A stretch of 46,235 bases of DNA from Candidatus Omnitrophota bacterium (GTDB lineage: Bacteria > Omnitrophota > Gorgyraeia > Zapsychrales > Zapsychraceae), in assembly GCA_029567025.1 (NCBI GenBank), contig JAKQLT010000058.1:1-46235 (forward strand). The letters run 5' to 3'. The notes beneath the pieces were generated by a model. It saw only the letters and a list, made by a program, of their open reading frames with translations, was not told the DNA's origin and searched no databases. A program made the position numbers and the translations under genes. Each line of letters begins with the position of its first letter. Positions within the stretch are counted from its first letter, which is position 1. Of this stretch, positions 31,729-46,235 are shown one piece after another.

Positions 31729-33117
31729 ATGGCAGAAATTTTAAGTAAAAAAAGCAGAAAAACACCTCGTCGAAAAATTCGTATTCCTGTGGTTTGCTGG
31801 GATGGCCGCGATGAACAACGCCAGGGGCAAGGAAAAGAATTATTGATAAGGGATTTAAGCGCGGATGGCATTGGCTTTATGTCGAAACAAATTTATACCG
31901 TGGGGACCCTGTTATTTATTGATATGTATTTGCCTAAACGGAAGAAACCTGTATCGTGCCAAATTAAAGTTGTTTTTGTGAAAGCCCTTTTGCAAACAGC
32001 TGATTATGTGATGGGCGCGTCTTTTGTCAATTTATCCGATGAAGATAAGCAGTTTATTATTTTTTCTTTAGAAAAAATGGATTTTTATCTTTTATTAGAA
32101 AGTATGGTTAAGGGCGGGGCGTCTGATTTGCATTTGACAGTTGGCCGTCCTCCAATGGTTCGACGAGATGGACGTATTTTAGCGATGGCGACTGATCCTT
32201 TAGAAGAAGGGGAAGTTGAGGCCATGCTGTATCCTTTATTATCCGATGAGCAGATTCAGAATTTTAAACGAACAAAAGAATTAGATTTTGGTTTCTCTCC
32301 GAATGTAGATTGCCGTTTTCGCGTGAATATGCATTGGCAAAAAGGTTTTGTCGAAGCGGCTATTCGTAATATTCCAACGGATATTAAAACGTTTGAGGAA
32401 TTGGGCTTAGCGACTAAACAAATGGAAGGATTTTGTCAGGATCTTTCCGGATTATTTTTAATCGCCGGGACAACCGGATCTGGAAAAACAACCACCATGG
32501 CGTCCATGATTAATTTTATCAATCATAATCAGAAAAAAGTTATTATTACTATTGAAGACCCCGTGGAATATATTTTTAAGAGTGCGCAAAGCGTAATTAA
32601 ACAAAGAGAATTAGGAAGCGATACGCAGTCGTATGCCGAGGCGTTAAGGCGCGCTTTACGCCAAGATCCTGATGTGTTGTGTGTGGGAGAAATTTTGGAC
32701 GCCGAATGTTTAAAGGCCGCGTTACGCGCCGCGGAGACAGGGCATTTTGTCATTTCAACCATTCACGCTCCGGATACCGTTTCAGCGATTGAACGCGCGG
32801 TTAATTTTTTCCCGCCGGAACATGCCATGGCAATTCGCCAACAATTAGCGACAGCGCTCAAAGCGGTTTTATTTCAAATTCTTTTGCCGCGCAAAGATCA
32901 AAAAGGACGTGTTTTAGCAACAGAATTGTTAATTAACAATAGCGCGATTAAGAATTTAATTCGTGAAGGTAAGGGGATGCTTATGGGAAGCGTTTTGCAG
33001 ACCGGCAAGACTTTAGGGATGCATACGTTACAAAATTCTTTAGAAGAATTATTCAAAAAGGGATTGATCGACGAAGAAACCGTTTTGAGTCTTACCAGCC
33101 GAGAGCACGCGCTTTAA
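31729..33117 (+). CDS. PilZ-domain::PilT-like type IV pilus retraction ATPase fusion
   Basis: The N-terminal ~110 aa carry RxxxR (RRKIR, 14-18) and DxSxxG (DLSADG, 42-47). The remainder is PilT-like: ASDLHLTVGRPP, Walker A GTTGSGKTT, DPDVLCVGEI, TGHFVISTIHA and the PilT signature AIKNLIREGK. Confidence 0.85.
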   Translation: MAEILSKKSRKTPRRKIRIPVVCWDGRDEQRQGQGKELLIRDLSADGIGFMSKQIYTVGTLLFIDMYLPKRKKPVSCQIKVVFVKALLQTADYVMGASFVNLSDEDKQFIIFSLEKMDFYLLLESMVKGGASDLHLTVGRPPMVRRDGRILAMATDPLEEGEVEAMLYPLLSDEQIQNFKRTKELDFGFSPNVDCRFRVNMHWQKGFVEAAIRNIPTDIKTFEELGLATKQMEGFCQDLSGLFLIAGTTGSGKTTTMASMINFINHNQKKVIITIEDPVEYIFKSAQSVIKQRELGSDTQSYAEALRRALRQDPDVLCVGEILDAECLKAALRAAETGHFVISTIHAPDTVSAIERAVNFFPPEHAMAIRQQLATALKAVLFQILLPRKDQKGRVLATELLINNSAIKNLIREGKGMLMGSVLQTGKTLGMHTLQNSLEELFKKGLIDEETVLSLTSREHAL

Positions 33118-36149: not shown

Positions 36150-37112
36150 ATGAGATATTCTAAAAATTTTTGTGTTAGTGTCGCTATTTTATCTATTGCC
36201 TTGTTTTTAACAGGATGTGATCAATTAAAAGCTTTTCAAGAATATTTTAGTAAGAAGTCCCAATCCAAACAAGCTGTTGTTGAACAGCCGCAAGCTGTGC
36301 CTGCTGTTACTCAAGAAATTCCTCTTGGCCCTTTACCTGCTAATGTCTTAGCCCGTGTTGGCACATGGACCATGACAATGGATGATTTTAAAGAAAAATT
36401 AAATAATTTAAAACAAGCGATGCCGGATTTTGATATTACAACGGAAGAAAATCAGAAAGCTGTTTTAGATGAATTGGTGAATCAGCAGATTTTGGTTGTT
36501 GAAGCTGAGAATAAACGATTGTCTTATGATAAAGAAGTTTTCAAGGCATTAGAAGAATTTAGGCGAACGATCCTTGTTCAAAAAATGGTTTCGGATATGG
36601 TTGAGAATATTAAAGTGACAGAGGCCGAAGCGCAAGCATTATATAATGAACGTAAAGATTTTTTTGTTGAGCCTATTGAGCTTCATGTGAGAGAAATTGT
36701 TATGGATTCGCAAGCAAAAGCGAAAGAAGTCCTCGTTGATCTTTTAAAAGGCGGGGATTTTGCCGAAGCCGCGAAACAATATTCTAAAGGAAAAACAGCC
36801 GCGCAAGGCGGTGATTTAGGTTTTATCACGCAAGTTTCTTTTCCGGAAATGGGCAATGCCCTTATGGCGCTGGATGTCGGCGGCGTTAGTAATGTTTTTA
36901 AAGGCCCGGATGGATTTTATATTGTGAAAGTCGAGGAAAAAAAGGGCGGAGCCCAAGTTCCTTTTGAGAAAATCAAAGACGAGATTATAAGAAATATGAC
37001 ATTATCAAAACAACAGCAAACCGTTTTAGATTATATTGCCCAATTGCGCCAGAAAACAAAAATTGATATTAATCAAGACCTTTTAAAATCCTTATTACAG
37101 GAGAAGAAATAA
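36150..37112 (+). CDS. PpiC/parvulin-type peptidyl-prolyl isomerase lipoprotein (PrsA/SurA-like)
   Basis: Lipobox LFLTGC. Parvulin core FAEAAKQYSKGKTAAQGGDLGFI..GPDGFYIVKV. The stop overlaps the cpaB start (TAATG). Confidence 0.82.
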   Translation: MRYSKNFCVSVAILSIALFLTGCDQLKAFQEYFSKKSQSKQAVVEQPQAVPAVTQEIPLGPLPANVLARVGTWTMTMDDFKEKLNNLKQAMPDFDITTEENQKAVLDELVNQQILVVEAENKRLSYDKEVFKALEEFRRTILVQKMVSDMVENIKVTEAEAQALYNERKDFFVEPIELHVREIVMDSQAKAKEVLVDLLKGGDFAEAAKQYSKGKTAAQGGDLGFITQVSFPEMGNALMALDVGGVSNVFKGPDGFYIVKVEEKKGGAQVPFEKIKDEIIRNMTLSKQQQTVLDYIAQLRQKTKIDINQDLLKSLLQEKK

Positions 37113-37984
37113 TGTTTAATATAGAAAATAAAAAACAATTTGCGATTATTTTATTAGCGGTTGGTTTAGGATTGTTTGCAGCTTTTCTTACAAGCCAGTA
37201 CATTAAAAATAGTATTACCGAGCAAACAAAGACTTTTGCGCAATCGTATGTCCAAAGTAATATGGAGAAAGAACAACAATTACAACAACAAATTGAAATG
37301 TTGCGCGCACAAATGGCTCAGGAAATTCAAAGAGTGGCTCAAGAAGCGGCTCAGCAGGCCGCGGCGCAACAAGCTCAGCAACAAGTTGTTACCAAAACAG
37401 AAGAAAAAGAAGTTCGTCAAGAAGCTTTTTCTGTGCGTATGCCAAAAGGCAAAAGAGCATTAACTGTTCTTATTGACTCTTTGTCTGCAGTCGGCGGTCT
37501 TATTAAAGCTGGTGATTTGGTTGATATTATTGCGCATTTAAAAGTGCCAGATATTACAAAAGATAAAGACAGAGAAATTGTCAAAGTTGATGATGTAACC
37601 ACTATTTTATTCCAGAAAATTTTAGTTCTTTCTGTGAATACGAACTTCGATGATATGACGCCACCAGATTATGTGCAACAGCAACAAGCTGGACGATTGA
37701 ATATTACTTTAGCGTTGGAACCTGAAGCCGCGGCTTTATTGACATTTGCTCAGAAAAATGGTCAATTACAATTTACATTGCGTGCGCCGGATGAAAAAGA
37801 AACAGGTGTTTTTAAAGTTGCGTCATGGCAAGCGTTATCCGATTTTGTATTAGAACATCAAGGAACACGGCTTAAAGTTCCTCGTGATAAAATAAATACA
37901 GCGACTCCTGTTGTAACAACAGAAATAGAAAAAGAACCTGAGCCTGTTATAAAAATTTTTAAATCAGGACAAGCGGTTCAATAA
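37112..37984 (+). CDS. cpaB: Flp pilus assembly protein CpaB/RcpC-like with a Gln-rich coiled-coil insert
   Basis: N-terminal TM helix. CpaB-type core (MPKGKRALTVLIDSLSAVGGLIKAGDLVDII.. ..ILVLSVN.. ..ITLALEPEAAALLTFAQKNGQLQFTLR). Preceded by EQQLQQQIEMLRAQMAQEIQRVAQEAAQQAAAQQAQQQ. Confidence 0.8.
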   Translation: MFNIENKKQFAIILLAVGLGLFAAFLTSQYIKNSITEQTKTFAQSYVQSNMEKEQQLQQQIEMLRAQMAQEIQRVAQEAAQQAAAQQAQQQVVTKTEEKEVRQEAFSVRMPKGKRALTVLIDSLSAVGGLIKAGDLVDIIAHLKVPDITKDKDREIVKVDDVTTILFQKILVLSVNTNFDDMTPPDYVQQQQAGRLNITLALEPEAAALLTFAQKNGQLQFTLRAPDEKETGVFKVASWQALSDFVLEHQGTRLKVPRDKINTATPVVTTEIEKEPEPVIKIFKSGQAVQ

Positions 37985-38002: not shown

Positions 38003-39766
38003 ATGATAAAAAAGAAAAAGTTTTTTTATTTCATTTTTTTTGTTGTTATTTGCTGTTTATTTTTTTCAAAAGCGCTTTGTGCTCAAATAGCAGAACAAGC
38101 GGACATTGTTGATACAAAAGAAGCCAAAGGCATTGCGTTAATGAAAGGAGAAATAGCAACTCTAAAGGTGTATGATTTAACACGGATTTCTTTAACAGAT
38201 CCTTCCGTGGCTGATATTATTGAAGCTAAAGGCGATAAAATTTTATTAATCGCGCGTGAGGTTGGACAAACGGTTTTATTTTTATGGGATAAATATGGAA
38301 AAAAGACTTTTGTTGTGTATGTTTTTAACCAAAATTTGGAAGAAATTCAAAATCGTTTAATATCTCTTTTTCAAGTCGCTGAAATTGAAGGTATTCAATT
38401 GTCCATTAATAATAAAGAAGGAAAAATAGTGCTTTCTGGCGGAGTGCCAGAAGATAAACAAGATTTATTTAATAAAATTATAGAACCATTTTCTCCAGAT
38501 ATTATTGTATTAACAGAGAAAGAAAAACGCGATGATTTGGTGCAAATAGACATGCAGGTGACTGAATTATCGACGACATTATCACAAACCTTAGGTATTG
38601 ATTGGACAAATCAACTGAAATACAATGAAACATTACCGAGCTTTGACGGATCCGTTAAAGATTATTTTAAAATAGGAGATTTTAATCGTACCACAGCTCT
38701 TTTAGCAACGGTTAACGCTTTGCTTGTCGAAGGAAAGGCGCGTATTTTATCACAACCTAAATTAGTTGTCGTAAGTGGTGAAGAAGCGAATTTTTTGGTT
38801 GGAGGGGAAATTCCTGTTAGAACCGCAACGGTTAATGAAACAGGAACGGCTGAGAATGTGAATTATAAATCTTATGGTATTGGAATGACAATAAAACCTA
38901 TTATTCGTAAGAAAAAAATAGATATTACGTTAAGCACAGAAATTAGCGACGTGGATGCTTCTAATTCTTCAGAAGATAATGTTGCTTTTGTTACGAGAAC
39001 AGCGCAAACACAGTTGTTTTTAGAAGATGGCCAAACCATTGTTTTGGCTGGATTGATTAGAAGTACAAAAAGTCAAGAAGTTAAACAAGTGCCGTTTTTA
39101 GGAAAAATACCTGTTGTTGGATTATTATTTCGTAGTAAATCAACGCCTGCCGCTAATCAAGACAATGAAATAGTTATTTCTTTAACGCCGTATATTTTAA
39201 TGAATAAAAAAGATGATTTGGTTTTAGAGAATATGGAAAACATGCGCATACAAGAGAAAGCAGTCAATAATATAGCGCAAGAAAAAGAAGAACCAAAAAT
39301 GTTAGATATTCAGGATTCTGTTGATGAGAAGACTTTAGAACAATCTCAAAAAGTTGAGACGCTTGCAGAAAAATCACCGCTGATTAAAAAGACTGTCAAA
39401 GAAATGCCTGTGATTGATGAAAAGCCATTATCGGTGAATTCTTCAGAATATCTTTTTGGTATTCCGGAAGAATTGCAAGAGTATGTTAAAGATGTTCAAA
39501 AAAGAATTGCTCAAGCGATTTCTTATCCTCAGGAAGCACAAAGTTATGGTTGGCAGGGCGTTGTTAAAATCGGAATGCTTATTCTTAACGACGGAACGCT
39601 TGCCTTCGCTTTGGTAAAAGAATCATCCGGCTATGAAGTTTTTGATAACAACGCGTTAAAGGTCGCAAAATCTTTAGCGCCTTATCCGCGTTTTCCTGCG
39701 AATACGGATTTGATGGAATTAAGCATTACCGTTCCTATCGTTTATTCTTTGACCAAACAAAAATAA
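38003..39766 (+). CDS. cpaC: Tad-type secretin (CpaC/RcpA-like) fused to a C-terminal TonB_C-like domain
   Basis: Signal peptide. Pilus-formation N-terminal domain (..ISLTDPSVADIIEAKGDKILLIAREVGQTVLFLW..). Secretin core (ARILSQPKLVVVSGEEANFLVGGEIPV.., VPFLGKIPVVGLLFRS). Charged linker, then YPQEAQSYGWQGVVKIGMLILNDGTL..VKESSGYEVFDNNALKVAKSL..FP, which matches the TonB C-terminal pattern. Confidence 0.82.
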   Translation: MIKKKKFFYFIFFVVICCLFFSKALCAQIAEQADIVDTKEAKGIALMKGEIATLKVYDLTRISLTDPSVADIIEAKGDKILLIAREVGQTVLFLWDKYGKKTFVVYVFNQNLEEIQNRLISLFQVAEIEGIQLSINNKEGKIVLSGGVPEDKQDLFNKIIEPFSPDIIVLTEKEKRDDLVQIDMQVTELSTTLSQTLGIDWTNQLKYNETLPSFDGSVKDYFKIGDFNRTTALLATVNALLVEGKARILSQPKLVVVSGEEANFLVGGEIPVRTATVNETGTAENVNYKSYGIGMTIKPIIRKKKIDITLSTEISDVDASNSSEDNVAFVTRTAQTQLFLEDGQTIVLAGLIRSTKSQEVKQVPFLGKIPVVGLLFRSKSTPAANQDNEIVISLTPYILMNKKDDLVLENMENMRIQEKAVNNIAQEKEEPKMLDIQDSVDEKTLEQSQKVETLAEKSPLIKKTVKEMPVIDEKPLSVNSSEYLFGIPEELQEYVKDVQKRIAQAISYPQEAQSYGWQGVVKIGMLILNDGTLAFALVKESSGYEVFDNNALKVAKSLAPYPRFPANTDLMELSITVPIVYSLTKQK

Positions 39767-39784: not shown

Positions 39785-41950
39785 ATGAATGCAAAAACGA
39801 TAACACTTTTTAGTAATAAAGGTGGCGTGGGTAAAACTTTTATCGCGGTAAATTTAGCCGCGGCGTTGGCCATTTCTAAAAAGAAAGTTTTACTTTTAGA
39901 TTTTGACTTGCAAGCCGGCCAAGATATGGCCCGTGTCATTAATCTTTCCCCGAAAGCATCCATTATCGATCTTTTGCCTCGATTAGAAACAATTGAAAAA
40001 ATAGATTCGATGATCGAATTTGTCGCTGTTCATTCGTCGGGCGTTCATTTCTTACCTGCCGTGCGCGGCATTAAACAAATCAATCATGTTACTCCAGATA
40101 ATATCAAACCGTTTATTCGTAAGGCTAAAGAATTTTATGATTATATTCTGATTGATGCGGGCCGTTCGTTTAGTGAGACATTAATTACTCTTTTTGATTA
40201 TTCGAATTTGTTATTATTGGTGGCCACACCTGATATTTTAGCTGTTTATCAAATTAAAACGAGTATTGATATTTTGCAGAATCTTCAATTCCCGCTTAAG
40301 ATTGCAAAACTGATTTTAAATCGTTCGGAAAGTAGCGGAAGCGTGGCGTGGCAGGAAATTCGTACCGCACTTCCTTGTGAGATTTTCAGTCATATTCCTT
40401 CCGACGGAAAAGTAGTAGGTTTAGCCTTAAATCGTGGAATTCCGTGTGTTTTAGATAGTCCTAAAAGTAAAGTCGCTGAGTCTTTTATGCGCATGGCCCA
40501 GATGATTGAAAAAGATAAAGATCTTTTTGTGGAATCAACGGATATTGAAAAACAAAGGGCGGTAGAAAGCGTTTCTGCTCAAGGGCAATTTTGGGAAAAT
40601 TTTGGAATTTCTCAGCATGTGGCGGATGCGGCTGGCGCTATCACGGCTATTAAAGAAGATGATGAAATAACTATTTTAAAGAAAAAAATACATGAAAAAC
40701 TTATTGAGCGTTTAAATCTCGACGGGATTACGCCAGAGAAATTAAACGATCCACAAACGATAGCGCGTGTTAAAAAAACATCGGAACAGTTAGTCGGAAA
40801 TCTTTTAATGGAAGAAATGGGCGGGAAACAAATCGCTTCTCATGAAGAGCGTATTCATATTGTGAAAGACGTGGTCAATGAGGCTTTAGGATTAGGGCCT
40901 TTAGAAGATCTTTTGGCGGATGGCGATGTGACAGATATTATGGCGAATAATCGTAATGAAATTTATGTGGAGAAAAACGGCCGTCTTGTGTTAACCAATA
41001 AGAAATTTTTGTCTGATTCTCGCATGCGTGCGGTTATAGATCGTATTATCGCGCCTTTAGGCCGTCGTATTGATGAATCAACGCCGATGGTGGATGCGCG
41101 TTTGCCTGACGGTTCGCGTATTAACGCGATTATTCCGCCATTGTCTTTAAACGGTCCGATGATTACGATTCGTAAATTTGGACAGGAGCGTTTAACGGTC
41201 ACAGATTTACTGTCTCAGTATAAAAGTTTGACAGAGCCAATGTCAAAATTTTTACAAGCGAGCGTTGTGGCGCGAAAAAATATTATTGTTTCCGGCGGAA
41301 CAGGTTCAGGAAAAACAACTCTTTTAAACGTGTTATCTGAATTTATTCCTGATGGAGAGCGCATTATTACGATAGAAGACGCCGCAGAATTGAAACTCAA
41401 AAAAAGCCATTGGGCGCGATTAGAGTCACGACCGTCGAACGTTGAAGGAAAAGGCCAGGTAACCATTCGGGATCTTTTTACGAATTGTTTGCGTATGCGA
41501 CCTGATCGTATTGTTATTGGGGAATGTCGTGGCGCTGAAGTTTTAGATATGCTTCAGGCAATGAATACGGGACACGATGGTTCTTTAACCACTATTCACG
41601 CGAATTCCGCGCGCGATGTTTTGACGCGTTTGCATTCTTTAATTTTATTAAGTGGTATTGAACTTCCTGTTCGCGCTATTAATGAAATGGTGGCTTCCGC
41701 GATTCATTTGATCGTTCACATTAATCGTTATTCCGACGGTTCAAGAAAAGTGACTGGTATCGCGGAAATAGTGGGATTAGATAAAGATTTTCAGCCAGAA
41801 CTAAAAGATATTTTTGTTTTTAAACAGGCTGGCATTGACTCTGATGGAAAAGTGATAGGTTCTTATGTCCCAACCGGATACATTCCAAAATGTTATCAGG
41901 ATTTTATCACTCAAGGCATCAAAATTGATAAAAATATTTTTTCGCTTTAA
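39785..41950 (+). CDS. TadZ/CpaE-like ParA/MinD ATPase fused to TadA/CpaF secretion ATPase
   Basis: Residues 1-245 are ParA/MinD-like (FSNKGGVGKTFIAVNLA, LIDAG). Residues ~290-721 are CpaF-like (LGPLEDLL.D..VTDIM.N, Walker A GGTGSGKTT, IITIEDAAEL, RPDRIVIGECRG, NTGHDGSLTTIHANS). It is one uninterrupted 721-aa ORF. Confidence 0.85.
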   Translation: MNAKTITLFSNKGGVGKTFIAVNLAAALAISKKKVLLLDFDLQAGQDMARVINLSPKASIIDLLPRLETIEKIDSMIEFVAVHSSGVHFLPAVRGIKQINHVTPDNIKPFIRKAKEFYDYILIDAGRSFSETLITLFDYSNLLLLVATPDILAVYQIKTSIDILQNLQFPLKIAKLILNRSESSGSVAWQEIRTALPCEIFSHIPSDGKVVGLALNRGIPCVLDSPKSKVAESFMRMAQMIEKDKDLFVESTDIEKQRAVESVSAQGQFWENFGISQHVADAAGAITAIKEDDEITILKKKIHEKLIERLNLDGITPEKLNDPQTIARVKKTSEQLVGNLLMEEMGGKQIASHEERIHIVKDVVNEALGLGPLEDLLADGDVTDIMANNRNEIYVEKNGRLVLTNKKFLSDSRMRAVIDRIIAPLGRRIDESTPMVDARLPDGSRINAIIPPLSLNGPMITIRKFGQERLTVTDLLSQYKSLTEPMSKFLQASVVARKNIIVSGGTGSGKTTLLNVLSEFIPDGERIITIEDAAELKLKKSHWARLESRPSNVEGKGQVTIRDLFTNCLRMRPDRIVIGECRGAEVLDMLQAMNTGHDGSLTTIHANSARDVLTRLHSLILLSGIELPVRAINEMVASAIHLIVHINRYSDGSRKVTGIAEIVGLDKDFQPELKDIFVFKQAGIDSDGKVIGSYVPTGYIPKCYQDFITQGIKIDKNIFSL

Positions 41951-41986
41951 AAAGAAAATCATCATTGTAAGTTGTTTTCCTTCCTT

Positions 41987-42328
41987 ATGACAATTATTAA
42001 TCAAACCCAAAAGACAATCATTGCTCAAAATGTTAAAATCGCGCAAACATTATCTTCGCGGATTATTGGACTTTTAAATCGTTTTTCGCTTGATGAAAAT
42101 GAGGCGCTGGTTATTACTCAATGTCAGTCGATTCATATGTTTTTTATGAAATTTGCGATTGACGCGATTTTTGTTGATAAAAATAATGTTGTTGTTGGAT
42201 TAGTCGAAAATATTAAACCTTTCCAATTAAGTCCTATTTTTTTTAAGGCCAATTATGTTATTGAAGCGCCTGTTCAAACAATCTTGCGAACAAAAACCTG
42301 CCTTGGCGATAGAATAGAAATAATTTAA
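41987..42328 (+). CDS. DUF192-family protein
   Basis: ..RIIGLLNRFSLDENEALVITQCQSIHMFFMKFAIDAIFVDKNNVVVG.. matches the DUF192/COG1430 pattern. ATG at 41987 is preferred to the TTG at 41972. Confidence 0.65.
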   Translation: MTIINQTQKTIIAQNVKIAQTLSSRIIGLLNRFSLDENEALVITQCQSIHMFFMKFAIDAIFVDKNNVVVGLVENIKPFQLSPIFFKANYVIEAPVQTILRTKTCLGDRIEII

Positions 42329-42429: not shown

Positions 42430-44247
42430 ATGGGTGTTATTTATAAGCTAAAACAAGAAGTTATTGATTATATTCTTCACATAAAGAAAGAAAATAATGA
42501 TTTTAGTTGCCGTCAAATTGCGAAAATCGCTTCCGATAAATTTGATGTGGACATTTCTAAATCTTCTGTAAATACTATTCTTAAGAATTCTCAATTAAGT
42601 AGCGGTGTCGGTCGTCGGGTTATTCAAAAAAAAGATTCGAGCCGCAAGTTTCAGATTCCTCAAGAAAGAAAAGAACAATTTCAAGAAACCATGAAACAGT
42701 TTGGTTTTGAAAAAGAAAATGTTGTTGCCATAGAAGAGCCGATAGCTGTACCGCTTTTGCCGGATGCAGTTAAGGAAAATCTTTTTTTGGAGCCCAAAAG
42801 CGATGATATCATGCTTTTGGAATCTCAAGCGCCAACATTATTAGTCTCGCAAGAACAACATTTGTCTTTAACCGATCAAACAGATTCAAAGCTGATAGAA
42901 GAAATAGATTTTTTACGCCAACAAAAACAGCAGGCATTTTCAAAAGTTTATACAAATGCAGGAGTTATTTTATTAAAAGCATTGTTATTGTTGACAGATG
43001 GCATCGGATTTTTATTGAAGATTATTAAAAAATATAATCCAGAACATATTTTTCCGGATAATTTTGAAGAGAGTTTAAATATTTTTCTTTTATTAAAGGC
43101 CTTAGGAATCAAAGATCCTTTTGAAGAAGATATTTCTTCTTACGCGGCAGGACTTTTGGGGCTACAAAAATCAGATAGCGCTTATGTGGGTCAGGCATTA
43201 GCCAGCGAAGATTCTCGAAAGATTTTTTTTCAGTGGAGCAAAAAAATACGCCTTTCTGATGATTTATTAAAGGAATACAGGAAAGAGAAAAATAATCTAT
43301 TTTTGAGCGTTTATGGCTTTAGGATAGAGTTGGAAGACAAAACAGTTTTATTGACAGATGCTTCTTTAAAATCTTTTTATAAAGAAATGGATTGTATTTT
43401 TCCATTGCCTTTTTATCATGCGATTCGTTTATTGTCTCAATATTTTATTGTGAATGAAAAGCCGATGGTTTTTGATTTTTCCGGAAATTCTTTGTTGTAT
43501 TTGCCTCAGATTGCCAAGATGTTCGATAATGTAAAAGAAAAGCGCGTTCAAAAAATATTTATCTTGAATGATCATCTGCAAGACATTTGTGAATTATCCG
43601 TCATTCCTCAAAAAAAGCGTCAATGGATAGCCCGTGTCGATTTTTCTTTTTTTGAAGGTATGGAAAAAACGGTTTCGGCGGGATCCCGTAAAAAAGTTTT
43701 TTATGATGCATTGTCCGACGAGATATATGATTTTTCAGAATTTCTTTGCCAGCTTGATCATAATCAAAACGTGAGAGCGTTTATTATTGAAAATAAATCG
43801 TGCGAGCGTTTAGCGACTGTTTTTTCTAATTGTTTTGAAATGGAATCTGAAGCTGTTGTATCGTCTTTTTTTATGCGTTTTATATTTAAAAATTCTTTTG
43901 TTAAAGAAAAAGTTTCTGTTACCGGATTTTTAAAGAATAATGAAAATGCGATAATAGAAAATTTTTCAGATTTGGCGGACGACTTTTTAAAAACGTTCGC
44001 GAATTATTTTACGCAGTATTTTTTGTCTGATAAGAATAAAGATAATAGTAGCGCTTGGAATGAATTTTTGAAATTGAAAGGCTCTTTCGATGAGACAAAA
44101 CAATTTTTACATGCGCTGTTTTATCTCGATGAAAAAAGTCCTTTTAAGAATGATTGTATTATGGCAATGCGCATTTTCAATGAGTATTTGATTTTGGATG
44201 ATAAACAGCGCAGGATTTTTTTAGATATTGCTAAAATCAACAATTAG
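42430..44247 (+). CDS. Hypothetical 605-aa protein with an N-terminal helix-turn-helix-like region
   Basis: The N-terminus FSCRQIAKIASDKFDVDISKSSVNTILKN looks like an HTH. The rest has no recognised motifs. Only one weakly hydrophobic stretch (AGVILLKALLLLTDGIGFLL), so it is not a TadB/TadC polytopic platform protein. Confidence 0.6.
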   Translation: MGVIYKLKQEVIDYILHIKKENNDFSCRQIAKIASDKFDVDISKSSVNTILKNSQLSSGVGRRVIQKKDSSRKFQIPQERKEQFQETMKQFGFEKENVVAIEEPIAVPLLPDAVKENLFLEPKSDDIMLLESQAPTLLVSQEQHLSLTDQTDSKLIEEIDFLRQQKQQAFSKVYTNAGVILLKALLLLTDGIGFLLKIIKKYNPEHIFPDNFEESLNIFLLLKALGIKDPFEEDISSYAAGLLGLQKSDSAYVGQALASEDSRKIFFQWSKKIRLSDDLLKEYRKEKNNLFLSVYGFRIELEDKTVLLTDASLKSFYKEMDCIFPLPFYHAIRLLSQYFIVNEKPMVFDFSGNSLLYLPQIAKMFDNVKEKRVQKIFILNDHLQDICELSVIPQKKRQWIARVDFSFFEGMEKTVSAGSRKKVFYDALSDEIYDFSEFLCQLDHNQNVRAFIIENKSCERLATVFSNCFEMESEAVVSSFFMRFIFKNSFVKEKVSVTGFLKNNENAIIENFSDLADDFLKTFANYFTQYFLSDKNKDNSSAWNEFLKLKGSFDETKQFLHALFYLDEKSPFKNDCIMAMRIFNEYLILDDKQRRIFLDIAKINN

Positions 44248-44287: not shown

Positions 44288-44314
44288 TTTTATGAAAGAG
44301 TGTTTTTAGCGGTT

Positions 44315-44470
44315 ATGATTATTTTAAAAAACAATCATAAAGGTCAAAGTATTATTGAATATGTTCTTGTCGCGACTATTGTCGCGGCCGCTGTTATGGC
44401 TATGAGCACTTATGTTTTTCGTTCGGTTCAGGCCACACAGCAAATGATTCAAAAGGAAGCTAATAAATAA
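44315..44470 (+). CDS. flp: Flp-family prepilin (51 aa)
   Basis: Not in the ORF track (short). My translation is MIILKNNHKG/QSIIEYVLVATIVAAAVMAMSTYVFRSVQATQQMIQKEANK*. It has the G/xxxxEY processing motif followed by a hydrophobic helix. An upstream in-frame GTG at 44300 is an alternative start. Confidence 0.75.
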   Translation: MIILKNNHKGQSIIEYVLVATIVAAAVMAMSTYVFRSVQATQQMIQKEANK

Positions 44471-44506
44471 TAAAATAATAAGAGAGAAAATAAAGGAGGA
44501 AAGCGC

Positions 44507-44719
44507 ATGTTAAGACAATATCAGGCAGGATGTTTTAAAAGAAAGAGAAAAGGACAAAGTACGGTTGAGTATATTATTTTAGTAGCAGGCGTTATTGCGG
44601 TCTTATTGATTTTTTTACGTCCCAACGGCCCTTTTCATACGGCTTTTAATGAAACATTAAAAACCGGAACAAATGGAATGGAAACTATAGCTGAAAGATT
44701 AAAAAATTCTCATTCATAA
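44507..44719 (+). CDS. Flp-like prepilin paralog (70 aa)
   Basis: RBS AAAGGAGGA. KRKRKG/QSTVEYIILVAGVIAVLLIF. Confidence 0.78.
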   Translation: MLRQYQAGCFKRKRKGQSTVEYIILVAGVIAVLLIFLRPNGPFHTAFNETLKTGTNGMETIAERLKNSHS

Positions 44720-44749
44720 AAAAGGTCATAAAAGATCAGGAGGCGTTTT

Positions 44750-45172
44750 ATGTTGAAAAAATTATTTAAAAATAAGAAGGCCCAAAATACCGCTGAATAT
44801 GCGATATTGATTTCTTTAGTTGTGGACGGGATTGTTGCTATGCAAACGTATGCTCAACGAGCTTTGCAAGCTCGCGTTAAAGATTCAGCTGATGTTATGA
44901 CATCTATTGTGGGTACTTCAGATGTTCAGAATTCTTGGAGTGATGTTGGCGGAAATGCTTTAGGTTCCACAAAACAATATGAACCATATTATTTAGCGCA
45001 AGATTATAATGTTTATCGTGATGATTCAGAAGAAAAAGGTTATGATACTGCGGGCTTTTATGTTGATTCTAATGGAGAAAGAAGGAGAAGAGGTAAACAA
45101 ACGACAACATATAATGAATCCGGCACAGTTGGTACAGGCATGAGTGGATTGTCCAAATCACCAACACCATAG
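44750..45172 (+). CDS. Flp/TadE-like pilin paralog (140 aa)
   Basis: RBS AGGAGG. KNKKA/QNTAEYAILISLVV, then YAQRALQARVK and a YEPYY motif. Confidence 0.75.
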   Translation: MLKKLFKNKKAQNTAEYAILISLVVDGIVAMQTYAQRALQARVKDSADVMTSIVGTSDVQNSWSDVGGNALGSTKQYEPYYLAQDYNVYRDDSEEKGYDTAGFYVDSNGERRRRGKQTTTYNESGTVGTGMSGLSKSPTP

Positions 45173-45220
45173 TAACATATGTAATAAAATAAAATATTTT
45201 ATAATTTTAAGGAGGAAATA

Positions 45221-45589
45221 ATGTTTAAATATTTAAATAAAAAAAGAGGTCAAAGCACTTTAGAATATGCGATTTTGATAATAATTATTATAGGCGCGCT
45301 TTTATCCATTCAGGTTTATATTAAGCGCGGTATTCAAGGCCGTTTAAAAGGCGCGGCGGATGATATCGGGGATCAATTTTCACCAGGAAATACGAATTCC
45401 AGAATAACTACAAGGACAATAAGTAATACTCAAGAAACAAATTATGGAGGTGAGGCTACGTCTGAATTGTTAGAAGATGAAGTTACAACGACTAATAAAA
45501 CGCTTAGAATTATTAATACTGATCAAGAATATTGGGGAGTATCTCATAGCGCTAGTGGTCAGGGTCAGATCCCGCAGAATCCTAATTAA
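45221..45589 (+). CDS. Flp/TadE-like pilin paralog (122 aa)
   Basis: RBS AAGGAGGA. NKKRG/QSTLEYAILIIIIIGALL, then YIKRGIQGRLK. Confidence 0.75.
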   Translation: MFKYLNKKRGQSTLEYAILIIIIIGALLSIQVYIKRGIQGRLKGAADDIGDQFSPGNTNSRITTRTISNTQETNYGGEATSELLEDEVTTTNKTLRIINTDQEYWGVSHSASGQGQIPQNPN

Positions 45590-45621
45590 TAATTTTTTAA
45601 AAAAATATTTTATAATATTAG

Positions 45622-45668
45622 AAACGGCTTGTTAGAGATAAGAAGTTTTCTGACAGGCCGTTTTTATT
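45622..45668 (+). terminator. Possible Rho-independent terminator after the fourth pilin gene
   Basis: Stem cggcttgt / acaggccg (extendable through A-T pairs), then TTTTTATT. The 20-nt loop is large, so confidence is moderate. Confidence 0.45.
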
Positions 45669-45761
45669 GGAATATATTATAAAATCCTCAAAAAGAAAAT
45701 GGTTTTTTATGAAAAATGTTGTATACTTTGAATAAGAATATTAATAATAAAGGAAATAGTT

Positions 45762-46235
45762 ATGCTACGACGCTTAAGACATAAGAAAGCGCAAGCGAAT
45801 ATGGGAGAATATGCGCTTGTTTTGATTATAACGATTAGTTTTATTTCTGCAGTTAGTTTGTATGTTCGACGGGCTTTGCAGTCTCGTCTTTTTGATGCGC
45901 GGAATCTTTTGATGCATGCAGACTGTTTCGGCTGTCTTCCTTCTAGTAGTCTTAAAAGTAATCCATCGACAAATATGTTAGGCAATATAGATATTTCATA
46001 CGAGCCATATTATACGGTCACATCATCAAAAAGATATGCAAGTTATGATGGAGAGGCAAATTTAGTTACAGATGGGACAGGAACTTCTTTTCAAAGAAAA
46101 TTTGATTCTGCGGGAGATTATTCTTCTTTAGGAATTACGTTGCCGCCTTCTGCTAGCGGAAATCCAGCACATATTGAACCATATATCAATATTATTAAAG
46201 AAAAAACGTCGGTATTGCATAATACTGTATTTATT
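45762..46235 (+). CDS. Larger pilin-like paralog, partial (>=158 aa, runs off the right edge)
   Basis: Not in the ORF track (no stop in window). My translation is MLRRLRHKKAQANMGEYALVLIITISFISAVSLYVRRALQSRLFDARNLL...ISYEPYYTVTSS... It shares the EY-hydrophobic helix, the Y-x-R-x-L-Q-x-R-L motif and the EPYY motif with the upstream paralogs. Confidence 0.65.
   Translation, partial: MLRRLRHKKAQANMGEYALVLIITISFISAVSLYVRRALQSRLFDARNLLMHADCFGCLPSSSLKSNPSTNMLGNIDISYEPYYTVTSSKRYASYDGEANLVTDGTGTSFQRKFDSAGDYSSLGITLPPSASGNPAHIEPYINIIKEKTSVLHNTVFI

Follow-up and report, generated by a model that had tools for sequence, protein, structure and literature searches.

Does the tad locus at the end of a 46,235-nt contig of an uncultivated Candidatus Omnitrophota bacterium (JAKQLT010000058.1 of assembly GCA_029567025.1, positions 1 to 46,235 of the forward strand, the whole of which we refer to as the window) truly encode the positioning ATPase TadZ (CpaE) and the motor ATPase TadA (CpaF) as one polypeptide, or have two genes been run together by an error? 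An initial annotation had placed both on one 721-aa open reading frame (ORF). We find a single frame at 39785-41950 on the plus strand which carries the corresponding pair of Pfam and NCBIfam domains; it lies in a tad locus, and its product is a true fusion of TadZ(CpaE) to TadA(CpaF) that lacks a receiver domain. Taken as a whole, the evidence is best explained by TadZA, in which a built-in TadZ recruitment module is very probably carried on the TadA motor of a complete tad locus. The gene and its parts are as follows.

39785-41950, plus strand: tadZA, the TadZ-TadA fusion ATPase, an uninterrupted 721-aa ORF of 2166 nt with Pfam CbiA/AAA_31 and T2SSE domains.
39785-40519, plus strand: TadZ-like ParA/MinD ATPase domain, residues 1-245, from Pfam, AlphaFold2, Foldseek and alignments with split tadZ genes.
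39818-39838, plus strand: deviant Walker A KGGVGKT, residues 12-18, both lysines kept, from the translation and the homologue alignment.
40520-40660, plus strand: inter-domain linker, residues 246-292, predicted to be flexible from low AlphaFold2 confidence.
40583-40615, plus strand: linker motif G-x-FWENFGISQ, residues 267-277, a short predicted helix, from the alignment and AlphaFold2.
40661-41950, plus strand: TadA/CpaF motor ATPase part, residues 293-721, with a helical N-region, an N-terminal domain and a C-terminal ATPase domain.
41294-41317, plus strand: TadA Walker A GGTGSGKT, residues 504-511, from the translation and the homologue alignment.

The domain matches divide the protein clearly. 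On the N-terminal half Pfam finds AAA_31 (residues 4-168), CbiA (6-210) and ParA (4-240), on the TadA half T2SSE covers residues 368-646 (2.1e-60), and the NCBIfam matches fall likewise into MinD-type models at 5-246 and a TadA-family model at 330-660. An AlphaFold2 model, built from a 40-sequence alignment with a mean predicted local distance difference test (pLDDT) of 80 and a predicted template modelling score (pTM) of 0.48, contains two folded modules, 1-245 and 293-721, bridged by residues 246-292 at pLDDT <50. The details of the initial annotation hold up well against these results: KGGVGKT at residues 12-18 and GGTGSGKTT in the CpaF part (residues 504-512) are both located in the translation, the linker that had been put at ~45 aa measures ~47 aa by AlphaFold2, the complete CpaF proposed to follow it corresponds to residues 293-721 with CpaF matches by sequence and fold, and the missing receiver-like N-domain is borne out by a ParA-like domain that begins at residue 4.

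Its premise that described tad loci keep tadZ and tadA separate no longer holds, as a TadZA fusion has already been reported in Bdellovibrio bacteriovorus. In tad locus 1 of strain HD100 an ‘atypical TadZA fusion ATPase’ has been described and tested (bioRxiv 10.64898/2026.07.08.737194, July 2026), in which a TadZ devoid of the atypical receiver domain is joined to TadA by a flexible linker; the authors credit an earlier paper with first noting the fusion. In the same preprint the TadZ region and linker together bind the polar hub RomR, which neither does alone, a full-length TadZA-msfGFP is functional and highly dynamic, and silencing of tadZA-tadB blocks prey invasion. A survey of the Omnitrophota reported Tad complexes in the phylum, with TadB and TadC grouping with those of Bdellovibrionales, and mentions no fusion (PMC10066038). 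Our full-text literature searches found no further description of a TadZ/TadA or CpaE/CpaF fusion.

The integrity of the gene can be judged from independent assemblies. The exact 721-aa protein is recorded on 14 contigs of independent assemblies, and six contigs compared in nucleotide sequence, from six samples held in Logan, ENA and NCBI, have no mismatch to the window over 2166 nt. At least 120 homologues share 64-79% identity at 100% query coverage and carry the same Pfam pair, the named ones among them being labelled Candidatus Omnitrophica or Omnitrophota. The only trace of a two-gene form is in a JGI contig from the same population (L116 of 3300009696, L116:1528-3692), where a GGG run corresponding to window position 40895 has lost 1 nt, which divides tadZA into products of 372 and 345 aa. 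This would be the observation to cite if tadZ and tadA were two real genes, merged in the window by a missed stop or frameshift at the junction. The deletion, however, sits at residue 371, within the conserved TadA motif LGLGPLE, 80 residues beyond the linker and away from the junction, and reflects either an error in sequencing or a rare, broken allele rather than a natural two-gene form. Against such a merger there also stand the intact protein on the 14 contigs, of which the identical six come from different samples and assemblers, the single frame kept in the homologues and in ~44 species genomes, some of them single-contig genomes, and a linker conserved at the level of protein sequence. 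We therefore give a hidden pair of genes next to no probability; judged from the sequences, the fusion is evidently no assembly artefact, error being excluded by the independent contigs together with the homologues.

To place the N-terminal half, we scanned one genome per species for loci resembling the 721-aa query, which yielded 80 loci whose frames were checked and aligned to the query. In 56 of these, from Bacillota, Actinomycetota, Chloroflexota, Acidobacteriota, Nitrospirota, Planctomycetota, Pseudomonadota, Thermodesulfobacteriota and some Omnitrophota, the frame alignment divides the query over two adjacent genes: residues 3-245 align with the C-terminal part of an upstream gene of 380-450 aa, and residues ~275-300 to 720 with the next gene, of 430-500 aa. 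The upstream gene is canonical tadZ, as in locus L013, where a receiver domain (36-155) is followed by a ParA-like domain which matches, below cut-off, the same MinD-type NCBIfam models as the N-terminal half in the window. Aligned to the query, the highest-scoring split TadZ reach 120-165 bits, and the only ParA-like paralogue of the window genome scores 53 bits. Because of these alignments, the position before tadA and scores far above that of the genome's own paralogue, the N-terminal half is, by sequence and position, the counterpart of TadZ/CpaE minus its receiver domain. The box K/RGGxGx[ST] by which TadZ is recognised on a ParA/MinD fold is present as KGGVGKT with a matching fold, and the place directly upstream of tadA, which TadZ has in the 56 split loci, is occupied here in the same order by fusion. 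Across 40 fused homologues, including those of Bdellovibrionota, K12, G13, G14, G16, D39, D41 and D124 are invariant in the TadZ half, and the second Walker A lysine (K17) is kept in 9 of 12 fused Omnitrophota proteins, 6 of 6 fused Bdellovibrionota proteins and 19 of 56 separate TadZ.

An alternative source for this domain would be a MinD/ParA/FlhG-type ATPase recruited independently, for instance to serve as a switch that binds the membrane and has no relation to what TadZ does. Its top profile matches are indeed archaeal and bacterial MinD, at 100.7 bits for minD_arch (cut-off 201.75) and 83.8 bits for minD_bact (cut-off 212.9). The Foldseek matches of the N-terminal module are 3ea0 (ParA family, TMt 0.91), MinD and FleN/FlhG; 3ea0 and MinD are the top PDB matches, with no solved TadZ among the matches listed. 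The lack of a receiver domain would suit such a recruit, as would a full MinD-type KGGVGKT, given how few separate TadZ have the second lysine. Yet bona fide split TadZ proteins yield the same MinD-type profile matches, KGGVGKT is also found in some of them, and the domain aligns over its whole length with the ATPase domain of tadZ genes which in many phyla occupy the corresponding place before tadA, scoring far higher there than the sole ParA-like paralogue in the window genome does. It does not qualify as a member of the MinD family, with both MinD models below cut-off and the domain fused instead of stand-alone. Independent recruitment is thus very improbable, and we retain descent from TadZ as the reading of the N-terminal half.

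In a comparison with PilB, PilT, GspE and VirB11, the closest solved relative of the TadA half by sequence is CpaF (8rkd/8rjf/9e24; E ~2e-112 over residues 338-700), the next family reaching 4e-37, and Foldseek pairs the C-terminal module with CpaF 8rjf (TMt 0.81, 41% identity). The NCBIfam model TIGR03819 gives 328.5 bits, short of its cut-off of 373.15, so that no curated equivalog cut-off is passed; TIGR03819 is an actinobacterial hypothetical equivalog, and the shortfall is evidence against this subfamily rather than against TadA. The features expected of a T2SSE ATPase are all found, namely Walker A, an Asp box (E531/D532), the catalytic glutamate of Walker B (E580) and a His box (H597/H605), and in the 40 fused homologues G504-G507 (including T506), G509, K510, T511, E531, D532, E580, H597 and H605 are invariant. 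Both nucleotide-binding sites of the protein are intact and, going by the sequence, look able to bind nucleotide.

Between the two modules, AlphaFold2 gives pLDDT <50 at linker residues 253-268 and 278-292, with a short helix at 266-271. The length and sequence of the linker differ between clades, and the close Omnitrophota relatives share the consensus G-x-FWEKFGIS-Q at window residues 267-277. In the 40-homologue alignment 34 sequences are close Omnitrophota relatives, and nearly all of them have the motif, as does one more distant fused Omnitrophota sequence (L101); the sequences of Bdellovibrionota and of family f34 lack FWEKFGIS. Examined by eye, roughly half of the separate TadZ have a similar short tail at their end, aromatic or hydrophobic and then basic (GLFGRK, NRIFSL, KKFSLWR), and separate TadA proteins start with MSLxxRL. 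From this we infer that the fusion may have arisen through read-through between adjacent genes, the motif being a putative retained TadZ tail. A long linker which is predicted to be disordered would also be accessible to proteases, and the fusion might then exist in the gene only, with linker proteolysis or internal initiation freeing TadZ and TadA and neither stoichiometry nor tether being fixed. No Met/Val/Leu start with an obvious context is present, however, nor any Met between residues 242 and 340; the full-length TadZA-msfGFP of Bdellovibrio accumulates and is functional, and a single frame is retained across distant phyla. We regard such separation of the halves as very unlikely.

The fusion is widespread, in the Omnitrophota and beyond. 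A full-length, single-frame match is present in ~44 of 201 sampled species genomes of the phylum (~22%), made up of every genome listed for the window's order (10), 29 genomes from its class and, in other classes, families f32 and f34; ~25 of the 201 have separate tadZ and tadA (families f31, f36, f41 and others) and 128 have no match. Outside the phylum, single-ORF fusions that carry both Pfam domains come from six loci of Bdellovibrionota, one of them in Bdellovibrio sp. HCB288, and from Elusimicrobiales, WOR-3, Eremiobacterota and unnamed metagenome-assembled genomes (MAGs). Among the best 150 cluster representatives at 50% identity at least 65, each standing for a divergent cluster, are fused, 38 aligning end to end in one stretch and 27 more carrying CbiA and T2SSE. 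In a tree of 79 TadZ domains, the 56 split and 23 fused sequences are parted by one branch (Shimodaira-Hasegawa-like approximate likelihood ratio test, SH-aLRT, 93). In a tree of 99 TadA domains the fused sequences form clades of Omnitrophota (97), Bdellovibrionota (99) and WOR-3/Elusimicrobia (96), with FHA-TadA proteins of Myxococcota interspersed among these weakly linked clades, and the split Omnitrophota sequences lie far from the fused, near Acidobacteriota and Pseudomonadota. Since the split systems branch with those phyla, the Omnitrophota hold two Tad lineages that are, by these trees, unrelated. Constraining the fused TadA, a group defined after inspection of the tree, to one clade gave a likelihood 4.2 above that of the free quick search (approximately unbiased test, p = 0.57, a single clade not being rejected). 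One origin followed by transfer between phyla is compatible with these results, not shown by them.

Some individual loci in the dataset are unusual. Split tadZ (~400 aa) and tadA (~450 aa) genes were seen in nine Omnitrophota genomes (G128, G040, G138, G028, G172, G034, G134, G066 and G100; loci L089-L096 and L100), and in G100 the two lie in the same frame with a single TAG between them. An apparent fusion in a Gaiellaceae locus (L047) was rejected: the open frame, in high-GC DNA, is spurious, and the genes there are in fact split. A 1282-aa frame in a Candidatus Eremiobacterota MAG (L049:9062-12907, plus strand) has CbiA at 316-503, T2SSE at 648-923 and T2SSF at 1114-1239; it may represent a three-way TadZ-TadA-TadB fusion or a long high-GC frame that conceals separate genes. 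Two Omnitrophota genomes have tadZA followed directly by another TadA-like gene, a short one of ~355 aa with 41-46% identity to the TadA part (L104:2441-3505 in G135, and G145:C2:31576-32643). Three top-scoring representatives, P0122 (1156 aa), P0123 (1605 aa) and P0126 (1356 aa), each have 2-4 separate matches to the query, which points to TadA/TadZA repeated in tandem within one polypeptide, or else to genes called wrongly.

Several of the results count against a positioning module of TadZ descent, fixed to its motor by an old fusion. The best profile match of the N-terminal half is to archaeal MinD, albeit below cut-off, and neither Pfam nor NCBIfam holds a TadZ-specific profile, canonical TadZ itself matching MinD-type models only. 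The receiver domain which defines canonical TadZ is absent, the ATPase domain beginning at residue 4. At a pTM of 0.48, the TadZ and TadA modules are not fixed relative to each other in the AlphaFold2 model. The loci were chosen by likeness to the query, which biases the sampling to its relatives, and the TadA tree, when unconstrained, divides the fused forms into three or four groups on weak branches, with 3 changes between fused and split.

The genes around tadZA place it in a pilus locus. Those within the window are the following.

37112-37984, plus strand: rcpC/cpaB, 290 aa (Pfam RcpC, 1.7e-20).
38003-39766, plus strand: rcpA/cpaC secretin with a C-terminal TonB_C domain, 587 aa (Pfam Secretin, T2SS-T3SS_pil_N and TonB_C).
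41972-42328, plus strand: DUF192 gene directly downstream of tadZA (Pfam DUF192, 5.4e-17).
42430-44247, plus strand: 605-aa protein with a weak N-terminal helix-turn-helix match (only Pfam HTH_32, below cut-off).
44300-46235, plus strand: array of small pilin genes of the Flp/class-III-signal type (Pfam Flp_Fap and Class_IIIsignal), continuing past the end of the contig.

A parvulin-type peptidyl-prolyl isomerase gene also lies upstream, with RcpC/CpaB and the secretin. The place of DUF192 is conserved in the same-order relative G091 and on all identical contigs, and the syntenic counterpart of the 605-aa protein in G091 has 827 aa. Family search, protein search and local tblastn did not find tadB or tadC in the window's own assembly; they were missed there because the contig ends inside the pilin array. 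A 32.6-kb JGI contig (L117) with the same genes and equal product lengths extends beyond the end of the window and runs through seven pilin-like genes and proteins of 523, 126, 1100 and 117 aa to a TadB-like (284 aa) and a TadC-like (297 aa) protein, each with one T2SSF domain. This order is repeated in G091, the TadB- and TadC-like genes included; the four intervening proteins (L117:11744-17396), which are syntenic in G091, have no Pfam matches. The sole A24 prepilin peptidase of the window genome is encoded on another contig. tadZA thus belongs to a complete tad locus of RcpC, secretin, TadZA, ~7 pilins, TadB and TadC. A scan of the locus for promoters and terminators gave counts no different from those in shuffles.

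Three further features concern the secretin and other ATPases of the genome. The TonB_C domain of the secretin occupies residues 506-583 and is kept on all identical contigs. A second, unfused CpaF-like ATPase of 421 aa, 42% identical to the TadA part, is encoded on a 6.3-kb contig (G000:C173; L109:111-4332, minus strand), where it adjoins genes of ~400-418 aa and has no ParA-like gene adjacent. A PilT-like ATPase with PilZ (10-110) and T2SSE (213-395) domains is encoded at window positions 31729-33117 (plus strand), ~7 kb upstream of the tad locus.

How might such a protein work? By analogy with CpaF, the TadA part would form a hexamer under the TadB/TadC platform and would drive the insertion and removal of pilins, powering the pilus both as it extends and as it retracts. 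The six tethered TadZ domains would then constitute the recruitment and positioning module of the machine: as in ParA/MinD they probably dimerise on ATP via the signature lysine K12, and they may bind a partner or the membrane at the site of assembly. The 1:1 ratio of TadZ to TadA proposed in the initial annotation is fixed, as a trivial consequence of both being on one polypeptide, and its proposal that the motor is tethered to its positioning factor is a reasonable reading; the two would be delivered together. In place of the lost receiver domain, TadZ and the linker may contact a separate landmark protein, as with RomR in Bdellovibrio. A bolder arrangement, which we consider unlikely, would have the six TadZ domains, whose residues for binding and hydrolysing ATP are kept, form three ATP-dependent dimers around the TadA hexamer, gating or biasing its two-fold rotary cycle, with the clade-specific FWEKFGIS helix as a retained C-terminal TadZ tail docking onto the membrane or onto TadA. 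If this were true, TadZ would be a regulatory subunit of the motor, more than a landmark, the fusion would be a ‘Rosetta stone’ for the outer cytoplasmic ring of Tad machines, and a single fusion of great age that passed by gene transfer between host-dependent or predatory lineages (Omnitrophota, Bdellovibrionota, Elusimicrobiota, WOR-3) would be suggested.

The fusion bears on the place of TadZ/CpaE in the Tad machine and on a possible contact with the motor; in a cryo-tomography preprint on Caulobacter, it is only speculated that CpaE adds to the outer cytoplasmic ring around CpaF. As the fusion is retained in dozens of divergent lineages, it argues for direct physical contact between TadZ and TadA, and TadZA is a ready single-chain construct for structural work. 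The weak grouping of the fused Omnitrophota lineage with Bdellovibrionota and with FHA-TadA predators fits a proposed predatory or parasitic lifestyle. The annotation of Omnitrophota Tad genes, whose current labels vary between MinD, CpaF and TadA, is refined as well.

TadZA can be set beside four kinds of known system. With MinD, FlhG (FleN) and ParA ATPases (3ea0, 1hyq, 5j1j) it shares the fold of the N-terminal domain (TMt 0.75-0.91) and a deviant Walker A with the signature lysine; unlike them, its domain is below the MinD cut-offs, fused, encoded in a pilus locus and without a free C-terminal membrane-targeting helix. FHA-TadA fusions, known from Myxococcota, Lentisphaerota and some Pseudomonadota, likewise place a regulatory or positioning domain N-terminal of TadA, but there it is the phosphopeptide-binding FHA domain and here a ParA/MinD ATPase; in our loci, L043, L061 and L081 (Myxococcota and Lentisphaerota) and their relatives encode TadA of 540-700 aa with an N-terminal FHA. 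The canonical systems of Aggregatibacter, Caulobacter and Pseudomonas have the same two ATPase modules in the order tadZ then tadA, in loci which likewise encode a secretin, RcpC, Flp pilins, TadB and TadC. The window differs from these in having one polypeptide, in a TadZ that lacks the receiver-like N-domain of ~130-190 aa, and in keeping the second Walker A lysine that is often lost in separate TadZ.

The nearest likeness is to Bdellovibrio TadZA, which is also a single polypeptide of receiver-less TadZ, linker and TadA. In the sampled loci, each Bdellovibrionota homologue is one ORF (720-770 aa) that shares ~37-42% identity with the query and has KGGVGKS. Bdellovibrio and the window genome both encode their prepilin peptidase away from the tad locus. 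The linker motif FWEKFGIS belongs to the window's clade and is missing from Bdellovibrionota, and gene order differs, with tadZA here followed by DUF192, the 605-aa protein and the pilins, and with a tadB-tadC pair closing the locus, whereas in Bdellovibrio tadB comes after tadZA and tadC lies elsewhere. The design of the fusion itself is therefore already known and the Omnitrophota protein is another TadZA; what is new is the share of Omnitrophota that encode it, the wider range of phyla, the two Tad lineages in one phylum, a possible single origin and the clade-specific linker motif.

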